Source of the DNA: Promethearchaeota archaeon
Lineage (GTDB): Archaea > Asgardarchaeota > Lokiarchaeia > Sigyniarchaeales > SOKP01
Direction of reading: 5' to 3'
Assembly (NCBI GenBank): GCA_019058015.1
Contig: JAHLWH010000099.1
Location: forward strand, 1-20,389
Length of the DNA: 20,389 nucleotides
Part shown: positions 6,598-14,212 of the stretch, one piece after another
Position numbering within the stretch: position 1 is the stretch's first letter
Layout: every line of letters starts with the position of its first letter
The notes under the pieces: model-generated
Seen by the model: the letters and a program-made list of their open reading frames with translations, nothing else
Told to the model about the DNA's origin: nothing
Databases searched by the model: none
Translations under genes and position numbers: made by a program

Positions 6598-7338
6598 ATG
6601 AATCTACAAAGAATAATGGCTCTTGTAAAAATGGAGCTGAAAAAGTTGATTAGAGAACCAGCTTATTTGTTTTTAATGCTATTGTTCCCTGCAGTCCTTA
6701 CATTAGCATTTGGAATAGCTTTTGGAGATCCTGCACTTGGAATGGATTTTAGTGTATTGACACCTGGTTTAATCTCTTATGCTTGTATTTTTATAATAAT
6801 GACCGTAGCTATGTCTTTTACTGAACAACGGGAACAAGGATTGCTAAAAAGAATTAATGTAACACCTATGACGTCTGGTGAATTCATAGGAAGCCATATG
6901 ATATCAAATATGTTTATAGCCATTTTACAAGTGGTAATAGTTTTGGTAATGGCTCTTTTTTTTGGTTTTAGACCACTCAGTGATGTTGTCGGATTTATTT
7001 TAGCATTTCTTATAATTGCATTATTTTCACTATGTTCAGTTGGATTAGGACTTATTACAGCAACAATTGCGAAAAGCGCTGGAGCCGCTACTGGAATTTC
7101 ATTCATTTTCATTCTTCCTCAGATGTTTTTTGGAACTTTTATACCAATAACCGACACCACTAGAATAATAGCAATGTTCCTCCCAAGTTATTACGTAGTA
7201 GATGCTTTAGCATCGATTTTCGGGGGCGCCCCATTAACAAGTGAAAATCTTTTGATAGATTTTGGTGTTATATCAATAGTTAGCGTTGCAATTATAATTA
7301 TTGGAATACAGTTATTTAAAAAATATGGAAATAAATAG
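6598..7338 (+). CDS. ABC-2 type transporter permease
   Basis: About six hydrophobic segments and an EQREQGLLKRINVTP motif; starts 1 nt after the ATPase stop. Confidence 0.92.
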   Translation: MNLQRIMALVKMELKKLIREPAYLFLMLLFPAVLTLAFGIAFGDPALGMDFSVLTPGLISYACIFIIMTVAMSFTEQREQGLLKRINVTPMTSGEFIGSHMISNMFIAILQVVIVLVMALFFGFRPLSDVVGFILAFLIIALFSLCSVGLGLITATIAKSAGAATGISFIFILPQMFFGTFIPITDTTRIIAMFLPSYYVVDALASIFGGAPLTSENLLIDFGVISIVSVAIIIIGIQLFKKYGNK

Positions 7339-7431
7339 AATAAAACTTGATTAAGACATTTAATGGAATAAAATTTTAAATTAATTTATTTTTTTTATTT
7401 ATTTAGCAAAATATCCTTATATTTTTTCAGT

Positions 7432-7442
7432 AAATTTATATT
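7432..7442 (+). promoter_or_regulatory. TATA-like box upstream of the candidate ncRNA
   Basis: AAATTTATATT, with TTTATA at 7435-7440, about 25 nt upstream of the AGGG at 7464-7467; this is archaeal promoter spacing. Confidence 0.45.
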
Positions 7443-7463
7443 ATTACAAGATAATAAAGTAAT

Positions 7464-7781
7464 AGGGACTCGATGACGGAGCTATTATACATTTATCGAG
7501 GACACGTACGACAAACTTATGACTATGTGTGCATAATAATGTAGACATCCTGAGTGTATAATCAGAAATTACTGCAATAGAAAATGGGCTCTTGATTGAA
7601 TGATGGAGTGTATCCAATATAATGATATGGAGCCAGTACCCAGCGTTGCAACATGGTTATTTTCCCTAATATAGCATAGAGTTTAAAGCCCTGCACGAGA
7701 GAACTTTTTTGATTTATGGAAAATCCTAAAAATGAGAAAATGTGTTAGTGTTTTGGGCTAAATCTATGCTCCCTTTTTTTT
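7464..7781 (+). ncRNA. Candidate structured non-coding RNA of about 310 nt, family not identified
   Basis: No ORF of 60 aa or more. About 37% GC versus about 12% in the upstream spacer (hand count). Many helices: 7469-7476/7493-7500, 7484-7495/7551-7562, 7502-7508/7524-7530, 7580-7587/7657-7664, 7673-7680/7763-7770, 7687-7691/7755-7759. Ends in a T8 tract. Confidence 0.6.
7774..7781 (+). terminator. Oligo-T terminator
   Basis: T8 run directly after the long 3' hairpin of the candidate RNA. Confidence 0.45.
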
Positions 7782-7803
7782 AAAAAGTTATTAAAAAGAG
7801 TGT

Positions 7804-8286
7804 TTATAAAAATTCAAAATCTTCAGAACCAAATAACGATTTGAGCTCGCTGCTAATAACTTTATGGTCAGTATATAAATATCTTTTTAATATTTCTTTA
7901 ATTTTAAGAGCCCATTTTTGTAATATCATTTTTAAAATGCCAACTTGGATATCTATATCAGTTATAACACAAATTATTCCAGAATCTCCAATTTTCATAC
8001 CAAATAAAAAACCTTTATCATATTCAGTTATTTGAATTTTTATTTTACCAAACCCTAAGATCTCTCCTTGTTCTTCTCCTGCTTGAAATACGGCTCCTCC
8101 AATAGCACCAATTCTCTCAACCGTTCCTTCCACTCCATCGACTGCAAATTTTGAAACGCTCTTTAGGGTTATTCCTGAACTATCCATCAAAATAACGTGC
8201 CTAATTCCGATTGTAGAATTCATGATTTTCTCAAGAATTAATTTAAGAGTGCGTTCATCTTCTGAACGGTCTATGGCAATACTCAA
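7804..8286 (-). CDS. Roadblock/LC7 (MglB-like) domain protein
   Basis: GIRHVILMDSSGITL, IGAIGGAVFQAGEEQG, ITEYDKG and DIQVGILK fit the roadblock fold; TTG start with an AGGAG SD about 10 nt upstream. Confidence 0.85.
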   Translation of the reverse strand: MSIAIDRSEDERTLKLILEKIMNSTIGIRHVILMDSSGITLKSVSKFAVDGVEGTVERIGAIGGAVFQAGEEQGEILGFGKIKIQITEYDKGFLFGMKIGDSGIICVITDIDIQVGILKMILQKWALKIKEILKRYLYTDHKVISSELKSLFGSEDFEFL

Positions 8287-9481: not shown

Positions 9482-10441
9482 TTAATAAGTATTCCTTCTG
9501 AAAGGAAGTTTAAAATTCAGATTTTCAGCTAATTCTTTATATCTGTTCCTAACTGTAACCTCAGTAACCTGTGAGACTTTAGCAATATCCCTTTGGGTGC
9601 GTTTTTCTTTCGATATAATGGAAGCGAAATAGATTGCTGCTGCAGCCACGCCGGTTGGGCCACGCCCTGAAATTAAACCTCGAGATTCTGCAATTTTGAT
9701 AATTTTCATTGCAATTTTTTGACAGGTTTGAGACAATTTAAGTTCAGAAGTAAAGCGTGTTATATAATCAAAAGGTTTTGTCGGATTCAGATTTAAGTTT
9801 AATTCTTGGGAGATAAACCTAAATGAGCGCCCAATCTCTTTTTTATTTACTCTTGCGATTTCAGAAATCTCATTTAGAGTTCTTGGTATTTTATACATTC
9901 TACATGCGGCATACAAGGAAGCTGCAGCAACGCCCTCAATACTTCTTCCACGTATTAGATGAGCATCTACTGCATCACGATAGACTTTCGCGGCAGTTTC
10001 CCTTAAATTTTTCGGTAAATCTAAATTTGATGCCATTCTATCTAATTCACTTAGCGCAAATGTTAGATTTCGCTCTGTAGCATCCGATACACGAATTCTA
10101 CTTTGCCATTTTCTTAACCGATAAATTTGCCCTCGAAGTTTAGATGGTATTTCTTTTCCAAAAATATCTTTATTTTTCCAGTCAATCATTGTGCTGAGCC
10201 CCATATCATGGATGAGATATGTCATAGGAGCTCCCACACGTGTGCGTTTCCTTTTTTGATCTGCGTCAAAAGCTCGCCACTCTGGACCTTTATCAATGTA
10301 TTTTTCTTTTATAACAAGTCCACAATATTCACAAATCATTTGGCCTCTATTTTCATCGTAAATAATTCGTTTTCTATCACATTCAGGGCAAATATCATCA
10401 AATAAAGACAGATTTTGAAATTTTAATTTCCAAGTTCCGAT
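9482..10441 (-). CDS. tfb: Transcription initiation factor IIB (TFB); start codon uncertain
   Basis: Zn ribbon CPEC-x15-CEYC, B-reader GPEWRAF, and two cyclin repeats ([17 protein letters not shown]; [13 protein letters not shown]). CPEC (from 10390) lies upstream of the first ATG (10339), so the true start is further 5'; ATC at 10441 is tentative. Confidence 0.93.
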
Positions 10442-10491: not shown

Positions 10492-10761
10492 CTACTTTTT
10501 TTTTGATTTCTTCATTTTTGTAAAAAGAGATTCAGAGGAGAAGTCAAAATCAACTTGTTTAGTGTTTGTATCCAGTTGAATTGAAACTAATGGCATATCT
10601 ACCGGACCAAAAATATCTTTTACATGTCCGATCATATTCATTTTTTTATCGAATACTGGACTATAAATATTAAATTGTCCCTTTTTGAATCCTCTTGACC
10701 TAAAAATCTGATTTTTTTTAGAAGTGCCAATGAAATTTAAGTTTAATTTGATCCAAGTCAT
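10492..10761 (-). CDS. gar1: H/ACA RNP protein Gar1
   Basis: [26 protein letters not shown] is the Gar1/Naf1 signature; gar1-tfb adjacency is common in archaea. Start is probably ATG 10761. Confidence 0.85.
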
Positions 10762-11055
10762 GTAAGGGGAATGCAAAAGTATTGTTAGAATGAATAACTT
10801 ATGAGTAAGCACTTTTTTATTTAAATTTTTTGAAAAGGTAGAAAAGGAACAAAAATTTGAGTAGGTTTTATCTCCGAAGTTCTTACTTCTAATTGATGGT
10901 ATTAAATTAATATTAAAAGAAGATATATATTTTTAAATTATTCGTGTTAATTTAATTTAATTTTCACTATTATCCGACAATTTTATTTTTATTCCCAAAT
11001 CATTTTATCTATTAAAAATACCATTTTTTATTATACCTTTAAAATATAGATTTTA

Positions 11056-12138
11056 CTAAAGTAAATTGAGTTCATATTGTTTCTTACAGAAGCATTGGGG
11101 TGAATAATTTAGCTCATTTACATCTTGGGATAATGTGAAATTACTAATGATTTTTAAATTTTGTTTATTACAGTCTGAATTAAGACAGTTATGAACCCCA
11201 CGATTTGTTCCTGCTCCAGATGGATCACACAAGATTCGAGTTGTTTTAAATTCTTTTTCTTGTAAAGATTCGTTTAAACAAGTAATAATCGAATATATCC
11301 ATGGGGGTCTATATCTATTTTGAAACCAGAGATATTCTACTAGGGTTCCTTTTTGAATATTAACTGGGTTGATTGAAATAGAATTAATTTTTATTTCTAA
11401 CAGTTTTTTTATTGATTTTTTACAATCATCTATTGCTGCTTGTTCTGAAAGAAAGGGTGGTTTAAATAAAAGGTAAGCTTTTACTCCAATCTTATATTCT
11501 CTGCACAGATTAAGAGCCTCTTGGAAGTCATTGAATTTAAAACCTTTATTTATATAATTAATTCGAATATAATCATTTACGGTTTCTAAGCCAATCCCAA
11601 CTTCAACATATTTATTTGGCAAAAATTTTTTCACTTCATCCAGATTTTCGTGGTTTAGATATTCTGGACGTGATTCTATTACAAATTCTTTAATATTTTT
11701 AGTTTGGGCAACTTTTTTATATATATACTCCCTAGCTGTTTTAGGCATTTCGGTGTCGTCTAAGAAACTTCCTGAATTAAAAATTTTGATGATCCATTGT
11801 CCTGTATCACTTTGAATTTTATCTAAGGAATTCTTAAATGCAAAATCGAATTGATTTATAATATTTTGGGAATTAACATGGTCAATATTTGCATCACTGA
11901 TATATCCACACATTGAACACCCCCCATTATCTCCTAAAGCCCATTCACATCCACGAGTTCTCAAAATGATAGTTAATTCATTTCCTACTTCATTTAATAA
12001 TCGATCTGGTTTTGTCCAAAAATAAACTGGCTTATTCAAATCATTATTAGGAGATCTAATTTTGACTTTTTTGATTATATCTTGCCTAATTTTTCTTATT
12101 TTCTCTTGTATTATGGGTTGTTTATTTATTTGATTCAT
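11056..12138 (-). CDS. raSEA: Archaeosine biosynthesis radical SAM protein RaSEA
   Basis: ILRTRGCEWA...GGCSMCGY, KIFNSGSFLD, ESRPEY, GIGLET, YLLFKPPFL and YRPPW motifs; overlaps the arcS stop. Confidence 0.88.
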   Translation of the reverse strand: MNQINKQPIIQEKIRKIRQDIIKKVKIRSPNNDLNKPVYFWTKPDRLLNEVGNELTIILRTRGCEWALGDNGGCSMCGYISDANIDHVNSQNIINQFDFAFKNSLDKIQSDTGQWIIKIFNSGSFLDDTEMPKTAREYIYKKVAQTKNIKEFVIESRPEYLNHENLDEVKKFLPNKYVEVGIGLETVNDYIRINYINKGFKFNDFQEALNLCREYKIGVKAYLLFKPPFLSEQAAIDDCKKSIKKLLEIKINSISINPVNIQKGTLVEYLWFQNRYRPPWIYSIITCLNESLQEKEFKTTRILCDPSGAGTNRGVHNCLNSDCNKQNLKIISNFTLSQDVNELNYSPQCFCKKQYELNLL

Positions 12139-14212
12139 AGATATCAACAATTCTCCCTGTTTTTGAATTTTTAATAAAAACAGTTCCAACTAACATTGTG
12201 CCCATTCCAATAACTTTATCCCTTGAATTATTTAATATGACAACTAAATCGTTAGGTTGTAAATCTGAACCATATTCTAATATACCTGGTCGAAATAAAG
12301 TGCTACCTTTTATGCATTCCCCATTAAAAACAATCATATTATTAATTTTATCTAAAGGTAAGAGGTTCTCTACAGCTTTAATCGTTAATAAAAATTGACC
12401 AGTTGATTGCCGAAATTTTCCAATCAATTTGTTTGTATTCTTGTCATAGACAAATTGAAGATCTTTATTTTTATGTTTTATTATTTTAACATTTTTTGTT
12501 ATTATTTCCTTACTAAAGTTTTTACCGAAATAATAATCAATTATTGCCGAAATTTTTCTAGTTTCTGAACTTGTTTTTTTATTTAAAATCGGGGGTTTTT
12601 CCTTTACATCGAATGTTCCGATAAATGTCTCAATCATTTCTTGTAAAGAAATTAAAGAATTTTTTTCAGTTACTCCCATTGAAGTATTGGTGTAGAATAT
12701 ATTTAATTTTAAATGTTCTTGAACTCTCTCAACAATTGGAATATAATTGCTATCAACGTGAGCAATAATTGGAATAGATTTTGGGTATTTAGATAAAAGA
12801 TTTATTAATATTTCTGAAGTAATTTGTATTTCTTCTTGACTCCATAAACCAGTTACCGATATGTCATATGAATTTGCAGGGTAAATTGATTCTAATTGTC
12901 TTGGAATAACTCCTAAGGGAGAAGTTAAAATAAATTCTTGGATATTAGGAAATTTAGACTTAGCGGTATCTCTTAGGATACGCAATAATTTTTTATGAGA
13001 TTTAGAACTCGAGTATGGTTTTTTTGCCGAACAAGGAAACAACACAATTAAATTGGTAAATTCCTCTGGAGTAAAGTTATTTACGACACGTTGTCTAAAT
13101 TCATGAAAATCCGGGCGGTAAAATGAGAGCTCACTAGGGCAACTAATTTTTTTTAGTTTTTGATATAGAGGTGTGTATTGTCGAATAGTTTCAAAATATT
13201 CTCTATCTAATACTTTTAACATGGATGTTAAGTAGGAATCATTTAAAGAGGATTTTTCGACTAATTCTCTAAAGTCTTCCGTGGTTAAATATTGTTTAAC
13301 TTTATTCATATAAGATAATGCTGATAAGAGGTTATGTCTATATAAAAACACCAAATTTTCTTCATTTTTTTTTTGTTGTTGCATCTCTGGTGAGATGGAT
13401 TGACAAAATTTACAAGAACAAGGTAAAAATTTCATTTTATATAAAGGAATAAGCTTCTCATCAAGATTATAAAAATTATCACATGATAGAAAAAATAAAT
13501 AGGTTGCATCAATGACATCAAACCCTAAATAAACTAGCATTGGATAATATTTAGGTACGATTTTCCCTGAAGCGATATATAGAAGATTATTATCAACATT
13601 ATTTCTAAATGATACAATAACTTTTAGGATGTTTCTAAAATTCTTCAAATTATCAAAAAGATCCAAAAAATTGAGTGCTTTGATGTTTTTATGCTTTTTA
13701 ATAAACTCAATATAGTAATCTAATAAAGAAATATTATCAAAAAACTTAATACTAAGACCACAATCAAGATTTTGATATTTTTTTAAGAGGTTTTCACATT
13801 GTGATAGATAATTTTGTAGTTCTGAAATTGCAAAATCAAGACTCATCGCAGTTGTGGGGATATTTAATGGAATGATGGGAAATACATTATTTATCTTTTC
13901 TTTTATTAAATTATCTTCCAAATTGTCTTGAAAGGTCTCAAATGTCCCACTATTAGAAAAAAAGAATCCATTACTATGAAAAAACGAATCATGGAAAAAA
14001 TTAATTTCTTTTAATTCATCAAGATTTAAAATTTTAAAAAGATCATAATTTTTCAGAAAATCTAAAAGTTCCTTATCATTAAATAATAAATCATTTATAG
14101 GAACTATCAATTTTGGAGTATGAATATATCCTTTTTTTCCTTGAATTAGATTCATACGGGAGATTTTTCCAAACCCGCCCTTGAAATTTAAAATTTCGAA
14201 AAAACCTTTCAT
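12122..14212 (-). CDS. arcS: Archaeosine synthase subunit alpha (TGT-like, DUF5591 and PUA domains)
   Basis: LVYLGFDVID, CSCKFC, FPCSAKKPYSSSKSH, LTSPLGVIPRQLE, YDISVTGLW and a C-terminal PUA domain; coupled to RaSEA. Confidence 0.88.
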   Translation of the reverse strand: MKGFFEILNFKGGFGKISRMNLIQGKKGYIHTPKLIVPINDLLFNDKELLDFLKNYDLFKILNLDELKEINFFHDSFFHSNGFFFSNSGTFETFQDNLEDNLIKEKINNVFPIIPLNIPTTAMSLDFAISELQNYLSQCENLLKKYQNLDCGLSIKFFDNISLLDYYIEFIKKHKNIKALNFLDLFDNLKNFRNILKVIVSFRNNVDNNLLYIASGKIVPKYYPMLVYLGFDVIDATYLFFLSCDNFYNLDEKLIPLYKMKFLPCSCKFCQSISPEMQQQKKNEENLVFLYRHNLLSALSYMNKVKQYLTTEDFRELVEKSSLNDSYLTSMLKVLDREYFETIRQYTPLYQKLKKISCPSELSFYRPDFHEFRQRVVNNFTPEEFTNLIVLFPCSAKKPYSSSKSHKKLLRILRDTAKSKFPNIQEFILTSPLGVIPRQLESIYPANSYDISVTGLWSQEEIQITSEILINLLSKYPKSIPIIAHVDSNYIPIVERVQEHLKLNIFYTNTSMGVTEKNSLISLQEMIETFIGTFDVKEKPPILNKKTSSETRKISAIIDYYFGKNFSKEIITKNVKIIKHKNKDLQFVYDKNTNKLIGKFRQSTGQFLLTIKAVENLLPLDKINNMIVFNGECIKGSTLFRPGILEYGSDLQPNDLVVILNNSRDKVIGMGTMLVGTVFIKNSKTGRIVDIYESNK

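Follow-up and report, generated by a model that had tools for sequence, protein, structure and literature searches.

A probable three-motif box H/ACA sRNA gene near gar1 in a Loki-type Asgard archaeon

Introduction

Archaeal box H/ACA small RNAs (sRNAs) contain one to three hairpins, each with a kink-turn (K-turn) or kink-loop (K-loop) and a 3' ANA box (PMC2377435, PMC11077068). According to the same two papers, the upper stem has 5-6 base pairs (bp), each pocket strand measures 5-11 nucleotides (nt), and the target uridine lies 14-15 nt, with a maximum of 16, from the ANA box. The closest known RNA to the one described here is Pab40/Pf7 of Thermococcales (HgcG, RF00064), which also carries three H/ACA motifs in a single molecule (PMC2377435). 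We analyzed a stretch of 20,389 nt (hereafter, the window) from a Promethearchaeota archaeon (contig JAHLWH010000099.1, positions 1 to 20,389), and more precisely its region 7465-7773. In this Asgard archaeon of Loki type (Promethearchaeia), the region probably encodes a single-copy, stand-alone box H/ACA sRNA with three motifs. To judge from its sequence, the RNA most likely belongs to a known class in an unusual layout and directs pseudouridine (Psi) formation in the large ribosomal RNA (rRNA). Coordinates are those of the window throughout, the RNA lies on the + strand, and a hand-drawn structure of 68 pairs is the reference for pair counts.

Each hairpin of such an RNA would assemble with L7Ae, at the K-turn, and with Cbf5-Nop10-Gar1, at the lower stem, the ANA box, and the pocket. 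By pairing with rRNA, the two pocket strands would flank a uridine that Cbf5 would convert to pseudouridine, and a basal C/D-like K-turn together with closing helices would lock the three modules into one fold.

A conserved stand-alone RNA gene

The gene and its borders are as follows:

7435-7440, + strand: TATA-like promoter box TTTATA, about 25 nt before the 5' GGG
7465-7773, + strand: RNA gene of about 309 nt, whose ends we infer
7774-7781, + strand: T8 tract, likely an archaeal terminator judging by its sequence

Region 7465-7773 is a stand-alone structured RNA gene that is free of open reading frames (ORFs) and conserved across many Asgard families. A sequence-only reading of the window had proposed here a stand-alone, K-turn-rich structured noncoding RNA (ncRNA) with its own promoter, which conservation and covariation bear out. 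The TTTATA box and the T8 tract lie where it had placed them, and so does the ORF-free island with its GC step: we found no ORF of at least 60 amino acids (aa) between 7339 and 7803, and the GC content is 0.11-0.13 across 7300-7449 vs 0.36-0.41 across 7450-7699. In related loci, an A/T-rich element of the TTTATA/TTTAAA type occupies the same alignment columns 5' of the GGG. The conserved block begins at this GGG in the alignments of relatives and stops past the outer helix of hairpin 3, and T-rich runs follow the RNA in many relatives, not in all. The covariance model R1 matches the locus at 7464-7773 (247.9 bits, model positions 1-308).

Of 24 other genomes in the family, 21 gave a blastn match to 7440-7790, with identities of 66-100%, and the family alignments A1 and A2 comprise 20 sequences. 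Covariation was judged by pair counts, shuffles, and slides, a slid control being obtained by displacing the 3' partners by 1-3 columns. RNAalifold predicted 48 pairs on the family alignment, 22 of them with compensatory changes. With the 68-pair structure, 91.5% of the cells of A2 are paired vs 34-44% with slid partners, and 34/68 pairs are compensatory vs 10-15 in the slid controls; the observed pairing values were reached by none of 500 shuffles. Phylum-wide, in 19 model-aligned sequences, 89% of the cells are paired (37-44% when slid) and 57/68 pairs are compensatory, in an alignment that leans towards the model because it was fitted to it. These pairs, and the presence of homologues in many Asgard families, are what the sequence-only reading had expected of a structured RNA. 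Its suggestion of a comparison with shuffled sequences gave a milder outcome: the + strand folds at -76.3 kcal/mol, somewhat better than shuffles (z = -2.14, 1 of 100 equally good), and the - strand gives z = -1.80. By itself, folding energy is thus weak evidence for a structured RNA, while conservation and covariation are strong evidence.

The distribution was established with R1. A full-length single copy is present in 119/131 sampled genomes of the window's family (f1) and, for other families, in 4/14 (f2), 0/1 (f3), and 2/4 (f4); at class level, it is found in 2/2 (f5), 2/2 (f7), and 0/3 (f6). A phylum sample of 151 genomes gave a match in 60, including 10 families outside the window's class (carriers include f9, f10, f12, f17, f18, f21, f25, f26, f29, and f30), and under stricter filters 15 other families of this sample were without a match. 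The Asgard assignment holds because, in the pattern scan, the contig titles of most carriers read Promethearchaeota or Promethearchaeia. One contig titled Nanopelagicaceae bacterium (L113) carries a full-length RNA of 295 bits whose match coordinates are those of an f1 contig, and its title points to mislabelling or mis-binning. Contigs with 'Hermod-', 'Hod-', and 'Odinarchaeota' titles, several in number, also fall within the window's GTDB family, so that contig labels are unreliable. In another genome (G051), a second match to R1, partial and confined to its hairpin 3 part (C17:42380-42456, positions 220-297, E 8e-10), is separated from the full RNA by about 500 nt and may be a duplicated hairpin.

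Three metatranscriptome runs from three studies, two of which may belong to one campaign, each contain one contig of 164-190 nt with at least 99% identity to the locus. These contigs lie wholly within 7472-7688 and reach neither flank; 7200-7470 and 7690-8000 are uncovered in the three runs, and such contigs cannot show absence or ends. They hint weakly at a small RNA that is discrete and abundant, and give neither strand nor ends. Of the 7464-7780 transcript foreseen in the sequence-only reading, they cover only 7472-7688, and hairpin 3 is not covered.

We also weighed a non-independent element, i.e., a 3' untranslated region (UTR) or cis element of a neighboring gene, or the decayed remnant of a protein gene. 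The position of the RNA would suit such an origin: it sits between convergent ORFs (6598-7338, + strand, ABC-2 permease; 7804-8286, - strand, weak Roadblock/LC7-like match), and an opposite-strand Roadblock-like ORF adjoins it in 56/66 loci. On the other hand, the TATA-like box stands at a fixed distance, the conserved block begins at the GGG, the ABC-2 permease is upstream in only 9/66 loci, and the RNA contigs end before both flanks. A decayed gene is moreover at odds with compensatory changes in 57/68 pairs, indels that are not multiples of three, and the lack of any ORF of at least 60 aa. We thus regard a non-independent element as extremely unlikely.

Identities excluded by model searches

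A search of the whole window against Rfam at gathering thresholds gave no match, and with E values up to 10 the segment 7340-7810 gave only four chance-level hits (plasmodium snoR27, MIR395, CRISPR-DR66, MIR169_2; E 0.9-6), far below their cut-offs. The outcome of the Rfam check proposed in the sequence-only reading is thus that no family matches the RNA. That reading had left two options, a highly divergent housekeeping RNA or an undescribed Asgard ncRNA class. In favor of the first, RNase P or signal recognition particle (SRP) RNA, are the comparable size and the K-turns of some archaeal RNase P RNAs. On the contrary, full-length matches to both models lie elsewhere in this genome, on another contig, and neither model hits the region with E values up to 10. 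RNase P RNA (RF00373) is found at C111:22989-23316 (63 bits, E 4e-17, vs an 84-bit cut-off) and SRP RNA (RF01857) at C111:28122-28443 (79 bits, E 7e-18, vs a 96.5-bit cut-off). This option is therefore given virtually no credence. The segment that had been likened to RNase P J11/12, UGCAAUAGAAAA, is in fact the lower stem and pocket of hairpin 2. As side observations, the RNase P and SRP RNA genes are 5 kb apart, with the 5' half of the 16S gene some 12 kb away, and standard annotation would miss both because they score below the Rfam gathering cut-offs. The second option stood as far as Rfam is concerned. The phrase 'undescribed class' is nevertheless too strong, because the class is known: the anatomy displays the features of archaeal multi-motif box H/ACA RNAs, as given in the papers cited above.

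Three hairpins compared with the box H/ACA rules

Three hairpins make up the RNA, together with closing helices and a C/D-like K-turn on which hairpin 1 stands. All three are built alike: the lower stem leads to an internal loop and then to an upper stem, capped by a K-loop in hairpin 1 and by a K-turn in the other two, and an ANA box directly follows the lower stem on its 3' side.

7488-7547, + strand: hairpin 1, an H/ACA motif, from stem covariation and pocket pairing to 23S
7573-7653, + strand: hairpin 2, an atypical H/ACA-like motif, from lower stem covariation
7674-7769, + strand: hairpin 3, an H/ACA motif within an outer helix, from stem covariation and pocket pairing

In hairpin 1, the lower stem (7488-7493/7538-7543) and the upper stem (7503-7508/7524-7529) enclose a pocket formed by 7494-7502 (UAUCGAGGA) and 7530-7537 (UGCAUAAU); the K-loop occupies 7509-7523 and the ACA box 7545-7547. 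The upper stem consists of 6 bp plus a U.U pair, followed by tandem G.A pairs. Its stems covary within the family, and phylum-wide compensatory changes affect 12/12 pairs.

Hairpin 3 is enclosed by an outer helix (7674-7680/7763-7769), both strands of which are deleted in 4/20 family sequences. Inside it, a lower stem (7688-7696/7748-7758), in which UU(U) bulges out at 7752-7754, leads to a pocket of GAGAGAAC (7697-7704) and UGUGUUA (7741-7747), then to an upper stem (7705-7710/7736-7740), a K-turn made of GA (7711-7712) and AAUGA (7731-7735), and an ANA box (AAA) at 7760-7762. The stems covary in the family and phylum-wide, and the upper stem has 5-6 bp followed by tandem G.A pairs.

Hairpin 2 has a lower stem at 7573-7577/7646-7650, with 6/6 compensatory pairs, a pocket at 7578-7586 and 7635-7645, an upper stem GGCUC (7587-7591)/GAGCC (7630-7634), K-turn strands at 7594-7601 and 7619-7628, an apical hairpin at 7602-7618, and an ACA box at 7651-7653. 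This motif is missing in one genome (G241) and replaced in another (G178), which belong to two lineages. A UGGG/CCCA pairing within hairpin 2 was also considered and was rejected, being unconserved in f2, f4, and f5.

The pocket strands of the window measure 9 + 8 nt in hairpin 1, 9 + 11 nt in hairpin 2, and 8 + 7 nt in hairpin 3. The lower stems of hairpins 1 and 2 have 5-7 bp, below the search descriptor of at least 7 bp in PMC2377435. The relatives have ACA or AUA at all three ANA columns, the third box being ACA in most, and a regular expression found the box in 49/54 homologues for hairpin 1 and 48/54 for hairpin 3. The predicted target uridine is 14-15 nt from the box in hairpin 1 and 14 nt in hairpin 3 without a conserved 2-nt bulge; for hairpin 2, a hand count gives 13 or 17, depending on which of two readings is taken. 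In conclusion, hairpins 1 and 3 fit the box H/ACA rules, and hairpin 2 is atypical.

Basal K-turn, closing helices, and revision of the fold

Four further strands complete the fold:

7468-7481, + strand: bulged (C-box-like) strand of the basal K-turn, read by hand in A1/A2
7548-7557, + strand: other (D-box-like) strand of the basal K-turn, from covariation and sequence
7558-7564, + strand: 5' strand AUAAUCA of the hairpin 2 closing helix, which pairs with 7654-7660
7654-7666, + strand: UGGUUAU (7654-7660), which is the 3' strand of the closing helix, plus CCC (7664-7666), from covariation

In the basal K-turn, the bulged strand comprises a C-stem ACUC (7468-7471), a GAU bulge, GA (7475-7476), and an NC-stem CGGA (7477-7480); the D-like strand comprises UCC (7548-7550), CUGA (7550-7553), and the C-stem GUGU (7554-7557). 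Its two stems together have compensatory changes in 5/7 pairs within the family and 6/7 phylum-wide. The closing helix of hairpin 2 (7 bp) shows 5/5 compensatory pairs phylum-wide. The 5' GGG (7465-7467) pairs with CCC (7664-7666), with standard pairs at its three positions in 16/16, 20/20, and 20/20 of the A2 sequences that have letters there, and families f5 and f7 lack both GGG and CCC.

About half of the helices drawn in the sequence-only reading are borne out by covariation, and half are not. Its acacgta/tatgtgt is the covarying upper stem of hairpin 1; ggctc/gagcc, tgga/tcca (the apical GG/CC), agcataga/tctatgct, agccc/gggct, and gcac/gtgt are likewise supported, and its view of UGA motifs as K-turns holds at four sites. 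By contrast, five pairings are unconserved in A2/A5. The strands of ctcgatga/ttatcgag turn out to be a K-turn strand and the pocket of hairpin 1; ctga/tcag is not conserved; gaaaatgg/ttattttc gives way to the pairing of AUAAUCA (7558-7564) with UGGUUAU (7654-7660); in place of cca..gttgcaac..tgg, UUGCA (7646-7650) pairs with UGCAA (7573-7577); and the terminal aggga/tccct is replaced by GGG with CCC (7664-7666). We also discarded a further K-turn proposed by hand at ACAUGAUUAU, where the UGA pairs with UCA within a plain covarying 7-bp helix.

The basal K-turn raises the question of a composite box C/D and H/ACA RNA, in which it would be a true C/D motif that also recruits Nop5-fibrillarin. 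Its 5' strand xAUGAnGG and 3' strand CnGA, the retained G-C of stem II, and the perfect CUGA of the window's D-like box are consistent with such an RNA. However, a box C/D sRNA has C (RUGAUGA) and D (CUGA) boxes in a K-turn and an unpaired guide of 10-12 nt upstream of D or D', and when the K-turn 7468-7481/7548-7557 was examined as such a motif, no free guide was found, the nucleotides 5' of the D-like box being paired (UGGA/UCCn) or forming the ACA box itself; moreover, CnGA shows free variation at its N, and a C'/D' pair with a guide is absent. A composite RNA is thus very unlikely.

Predicted rRNA targets

We located the 23S rRNA and both halves of the 16S rRNA of this genome and numbered targets by alignment to E. 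coli K-12 rrlH. The invariant nucleotides of the hairpin 1 pocket pair with 23S UUGC-[UU]-CCUCGAU through UCGAGG on its 5' strand and GCAA on its 3' strand. By alignment, the target uridine is E. coli 2496, with 6-7 + 4 bp around it. The guide core CGAGG occurs in 50/54 homologues, and CGAGG and GCAA occur in this order in 44/54. The target sequence UUGC-U[U/A]-CCUCGAUG is found in 5/5 distant Asgard genomes, the unpaired N alone varying. Hairpin 1 is thus predicted from its sequence to direct modification of 23S U2496, in the peptidyl-transferase centre (PTC), and this is the best supported part of the assignment.

This position is a known one. Yeast 25S and E. coli 23S numbers differ by 369 at 2826 = 2457 (table in PMC11077068) and at Um2921 = Um2552 (PMC1766470); because this offset is constant, E. 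coli 2496 corresponds to yeast Psi2865, which is guided by snR46 according to tables in PMC5699541 and PMC8307265. With a constant offset of 92, it also corresponds to Psi2588 of P. abyssi, which PMC2377435 describes as guided by motif 1 of Pab40/Pf7 and conserved in eukaryotes.

The pocket of hairpin 3 (GAGAGAAC + GUUA) pairs with 23S UAGC-[UG]-GUUCUC, i.e., around E. coli U807, with 6 + 4 bp in f1 and 4 + 4 elsewhere, and its 3' guide duplex directly abuts the lower stem. U807 is hence predicted, less firmly, as the hairpin 3 target; it may be the equivalent of yeast Psi960. Helix 69 was tried by hand as the hairpin 3 target and does not fit. Under strict canonical criteria, which were set after the hits were known, pockets 1 and 3 have one rRNA site each in this genome, an outcome given by 26/2000 shuffled pockets for hairpin 1 and 39/2000 for hairpin 3.

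Hairpin 2 has two 7-nt complements in 23S, at E. coli 2578-2584 and at 2557-2563, the latter being the 3' strand of H92, the A-loop helix. Its role may be to bind the H92 region or may be structural. The 3' strand of hairpin 2 is also a perfect 9-nt complement of 16S UGGGUACUG (E. coli ~316-324), which we did not adopt because it has no U at the required position and no 5'-guide pairing; a 16S site at ~430 (6 + 6 bp) was dropped because it lies within a variable region. For the linkers, RNAduplex gave hits to 16S and 23S that are window-specific.

The rRNA genes themselves call for a few remarks. The 23S match (C87:36427-39640) spans 3214 nt vs a model of 2987 positions, consistent with expansion segments, and its AU-rich stretches give many spurious guide-target hits. 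The 16S gene is split near model position 828 over two contig ends (C111:40453-41294 and C75:22513-23151), which an assembly break could explain, as could an insertion or an intron at this position. No modification map of an Asgard ribosome appeared in the portions of the literature returned by our search.

Linkage to gar1 and neighborhood

The neighborhood contains a gene of the H/ACA machinery:

10492-10812, - strand: gar1 homologue, Pfam Gar1 match at 10549-10677 (29 bits, E 2.6e-6)

This match, just below the 29.3-bit cut-off, is the only Gar1 match of the genome, which encodes Cbf5, Nop10, Gar1, and L7Ae. In the window, gar1 is 2.8 kb from the RNA gene and adjoins a TFB gene (9482-10339, - strand); the two lie 1.7-2.8 kb from the RNA gene. 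Among 123 genomes with both the RNA and Gar1 hits, the distance is within 10 kb in 105 and within 5 kb in 97 (median 2.6 kb), and the linkage holds in all 4 f2 genomes that carry the RNA. Exceptions are two f4 genomes, one complete genome where the genes are 1.18 Mb apart, and 14 genomes with the genes on different contigs, in most of which one of the two is near a contig start. The linkage is supportive and not decisive, because related genomes are not independent.

The neighbors were recorded at 66 loci, some of them duplicates, and are the Roadblock-like ORF (56/66) and the ABC-2 permease (9/66) described above. Across f1 and f2, the genes are repeatedly clustered as RNA / Roadblock-like ORF / small ORFs / TFB / gar1. 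Further along the window, a 696-aa ORF (12122-14212, - strand) with TGT, DUF5591, TGT_C2, and PUA domains looks like an archaeosine tRNA-guanine transglycosylase, i.e., an RNA-modification gene of the same neighborhood.

Weighing a guide RNA against other L7Ae-bound particles

Several observations weigh against a canonical three-motif guide RNA. Hairpin 2 departs from the K-turn spacing rule, since its K-turn lies about 10-11 positions above the pocket vs 5-6 in the rule of the cited papers; it has no canonical site in the rRNAs of this genome, and its non-canonical complementarities are matched by 141/2000 shuffles. Every ANA box sits in an internal loop closed by a further helix and not in a free tail or hinge. 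For hairpin 3, the ANA distance becomes 16 if the bulge is counted, two genomes have a 10-nt insertion at the bulge point, and the RNA contigs do not cover it. In scans by base-pair count, 36% of shuffles do as well as hairpin 3 (not significant) and 4% as well as hairpin 1 (marginal). In the window's genus, the 3' guide of hairpin 1 is 3 bp (GCA) vs 4 in most relatives, and 4 bp is already at the low end of the functional range in Pyrococcus (PMC2377435). As for hairpin 3, most lineages share a near-invariant guide GAGAGAAC, yet its proposed target differs among them in the 3' flank (GUUCUC in f1, GUUCCC/GUUCCU elsewhere), only 4 + 4 bp being conserved mismatch-free; a factor other than target pairing may therefore hold this pocket constant.

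Absences count as well. R1 did not find the RNA in 12/131 f1 genomes, and a genome of the same genus rated 100% complete (G001) is without it by blastn and R1; this genome carries gar1 (C53:10973). The HgcG model (RF00064, 77-bit cut-off) has no match in the whole genome with E values up to 10, and membership of the HgcG family thus does not follow.

Some of these points would suit a scaffold or chaperone RNA of a new kind, bound by L7Ae and only H/ACA-like, which would act without pseudouridylation, for example by holding segments of precursor rRNA (the PTC strand, H92) during folding of the large subunit, or by nucleating another ribonucleoprotein (RNP). Its four K-turn sites, the closing helices that bury the ANA boxes in internal loops, and the atypical hairpin 2 are in line with such a role, and so are a hairpin 3 pocket better conserved than its proposed target and hairpin 2 strands that complement both sides of the A-loop region without canonical geometry. 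We nevertheless hold a scaffold of this kind to be unlikely: hairpins 1 and 3 follow the distance and stem-length rules of H/ACA units, the single best sites include a known conserved pseudouridine position (PMC2377435), hairpins of the hairpin 3 type also occur elsewhere as plain H/ACA hairpins, and the gene is linked to gar1.

The snoRNPs snR10 and snR30 are H/ACA particles that are essential or act in processing. We can also imagine, as an unlikely proposal, that the clamped RNP with four L7Ae, genetically coupled to gar1, serves as a chaperone of rRNA folding or processing in the peptidyl-transferase region. As part of this proposal, hairpin 2 would bind both strands of H92, and the hairpin 3 pocket would be fixed by a factor other than target pairing. 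If true, the RNA would be an archaeal counterpart of the snR10/snR30-type snoRNPs and possibly a forerunner of the multi-hairpin eukaryotic H/ACA snoRNAs. The three-motif guide RNA is the reading that we prefer and compare below.

Comparison with known RNAs and significance

Composite C/D-H/ACA scaRNAs of eukaryotes, such as U85, carry an H/ACA unit atop a C/D-like K-turn stem, and Asgard archaea are the closest known relatives of eukaryotes. The Asgard RNA has no free methylation guide, and Nop5-fibrillarin binding is unsupported, which separates it from the U85 type; it resembles this type in having an H/ACA unit on a C/D-like K-turn stem. Unlike the Asgard RNA, the H/ACA snoRNAs of eukaryotes are two-hairpin molecules, which carry H and ACA boxes and lack K-turns.

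The single-hairpin sRNAs Pf9/Pab160 and S. islandicus sR115 and sR435 (PMC2377435, PMC11077068) share the layout of Asgard hairpins 1 and 3, i.e., a lower stem, a pocket, an upper stem of 5-6 bp, a K-turn, and an ANA box 14-16 nt from the uridine. The Asgard RNA differs by fusing three such units with extra helices and by placing the ANA boxes in internal loops instead of tails. Hairpins of the hairpin 3 type, with the same pocket, 2-nt lower-stem bulge, K-turn, and ACA, also occur on contigs labelled Bathyarchaeia and Woesearchaeota, which suggests, at the level of sequence, that hairpin 3 is an old and widespread guide type. Two such loci, L153:1784-1978 (Woesearchaeota) and L114:5293-5471 (Bathyarchaeia), have the pocket GAGAGAAC / GUUAGUG, the bulge, and the ACA as in hairpin 3, and L153 has, immediately upstream, another K-turn hairpin with AACA after it.

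The RNA is a handle on the age of individual rRNA pseudouridylation sites and of their guides. No Rfam model detects it, and hundreds of Asgard metagenome-assembled genomes (MAGs) can be annotated for the gene with our covariance model. The clamped layout, the extra K-turn, and the gar1 linkage are testable details for RNP assembly, and the two predicted 23S Psi, which correspond to E. coli 2496 and 807, could be checked in a cultured Loki-type strain. In the parts of the literature that our search brought up, we found no description of Asgard H/ACA RNAs or of an RNA-guided modification machinery in these archaea.

Pab40 and the Asgard RNA both have a K-turn or K-loop and an ANA box in each motif, and they are similar in length, the HgcG model having 276 positions and the Asgard RNA about 309 nt. 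The latter also has a basal K-turn and closing helices. Motif 3 of Pab40 targets helix 69 (Psi2016), whereas Asgard hairpin 3 points to U807. The site of Pab40 motif 1, Psi2588, equals E. coli 2496, the predicted site of Asgard hairpin 1 (Pab40 data from PMC2377435). Yeast snR46 (Psi2865) has this same target position and the same bipartite guide logic. The predicted target of hairpin 1 coincides with a pseudouridine common to Thermococcales, yeast, and human.

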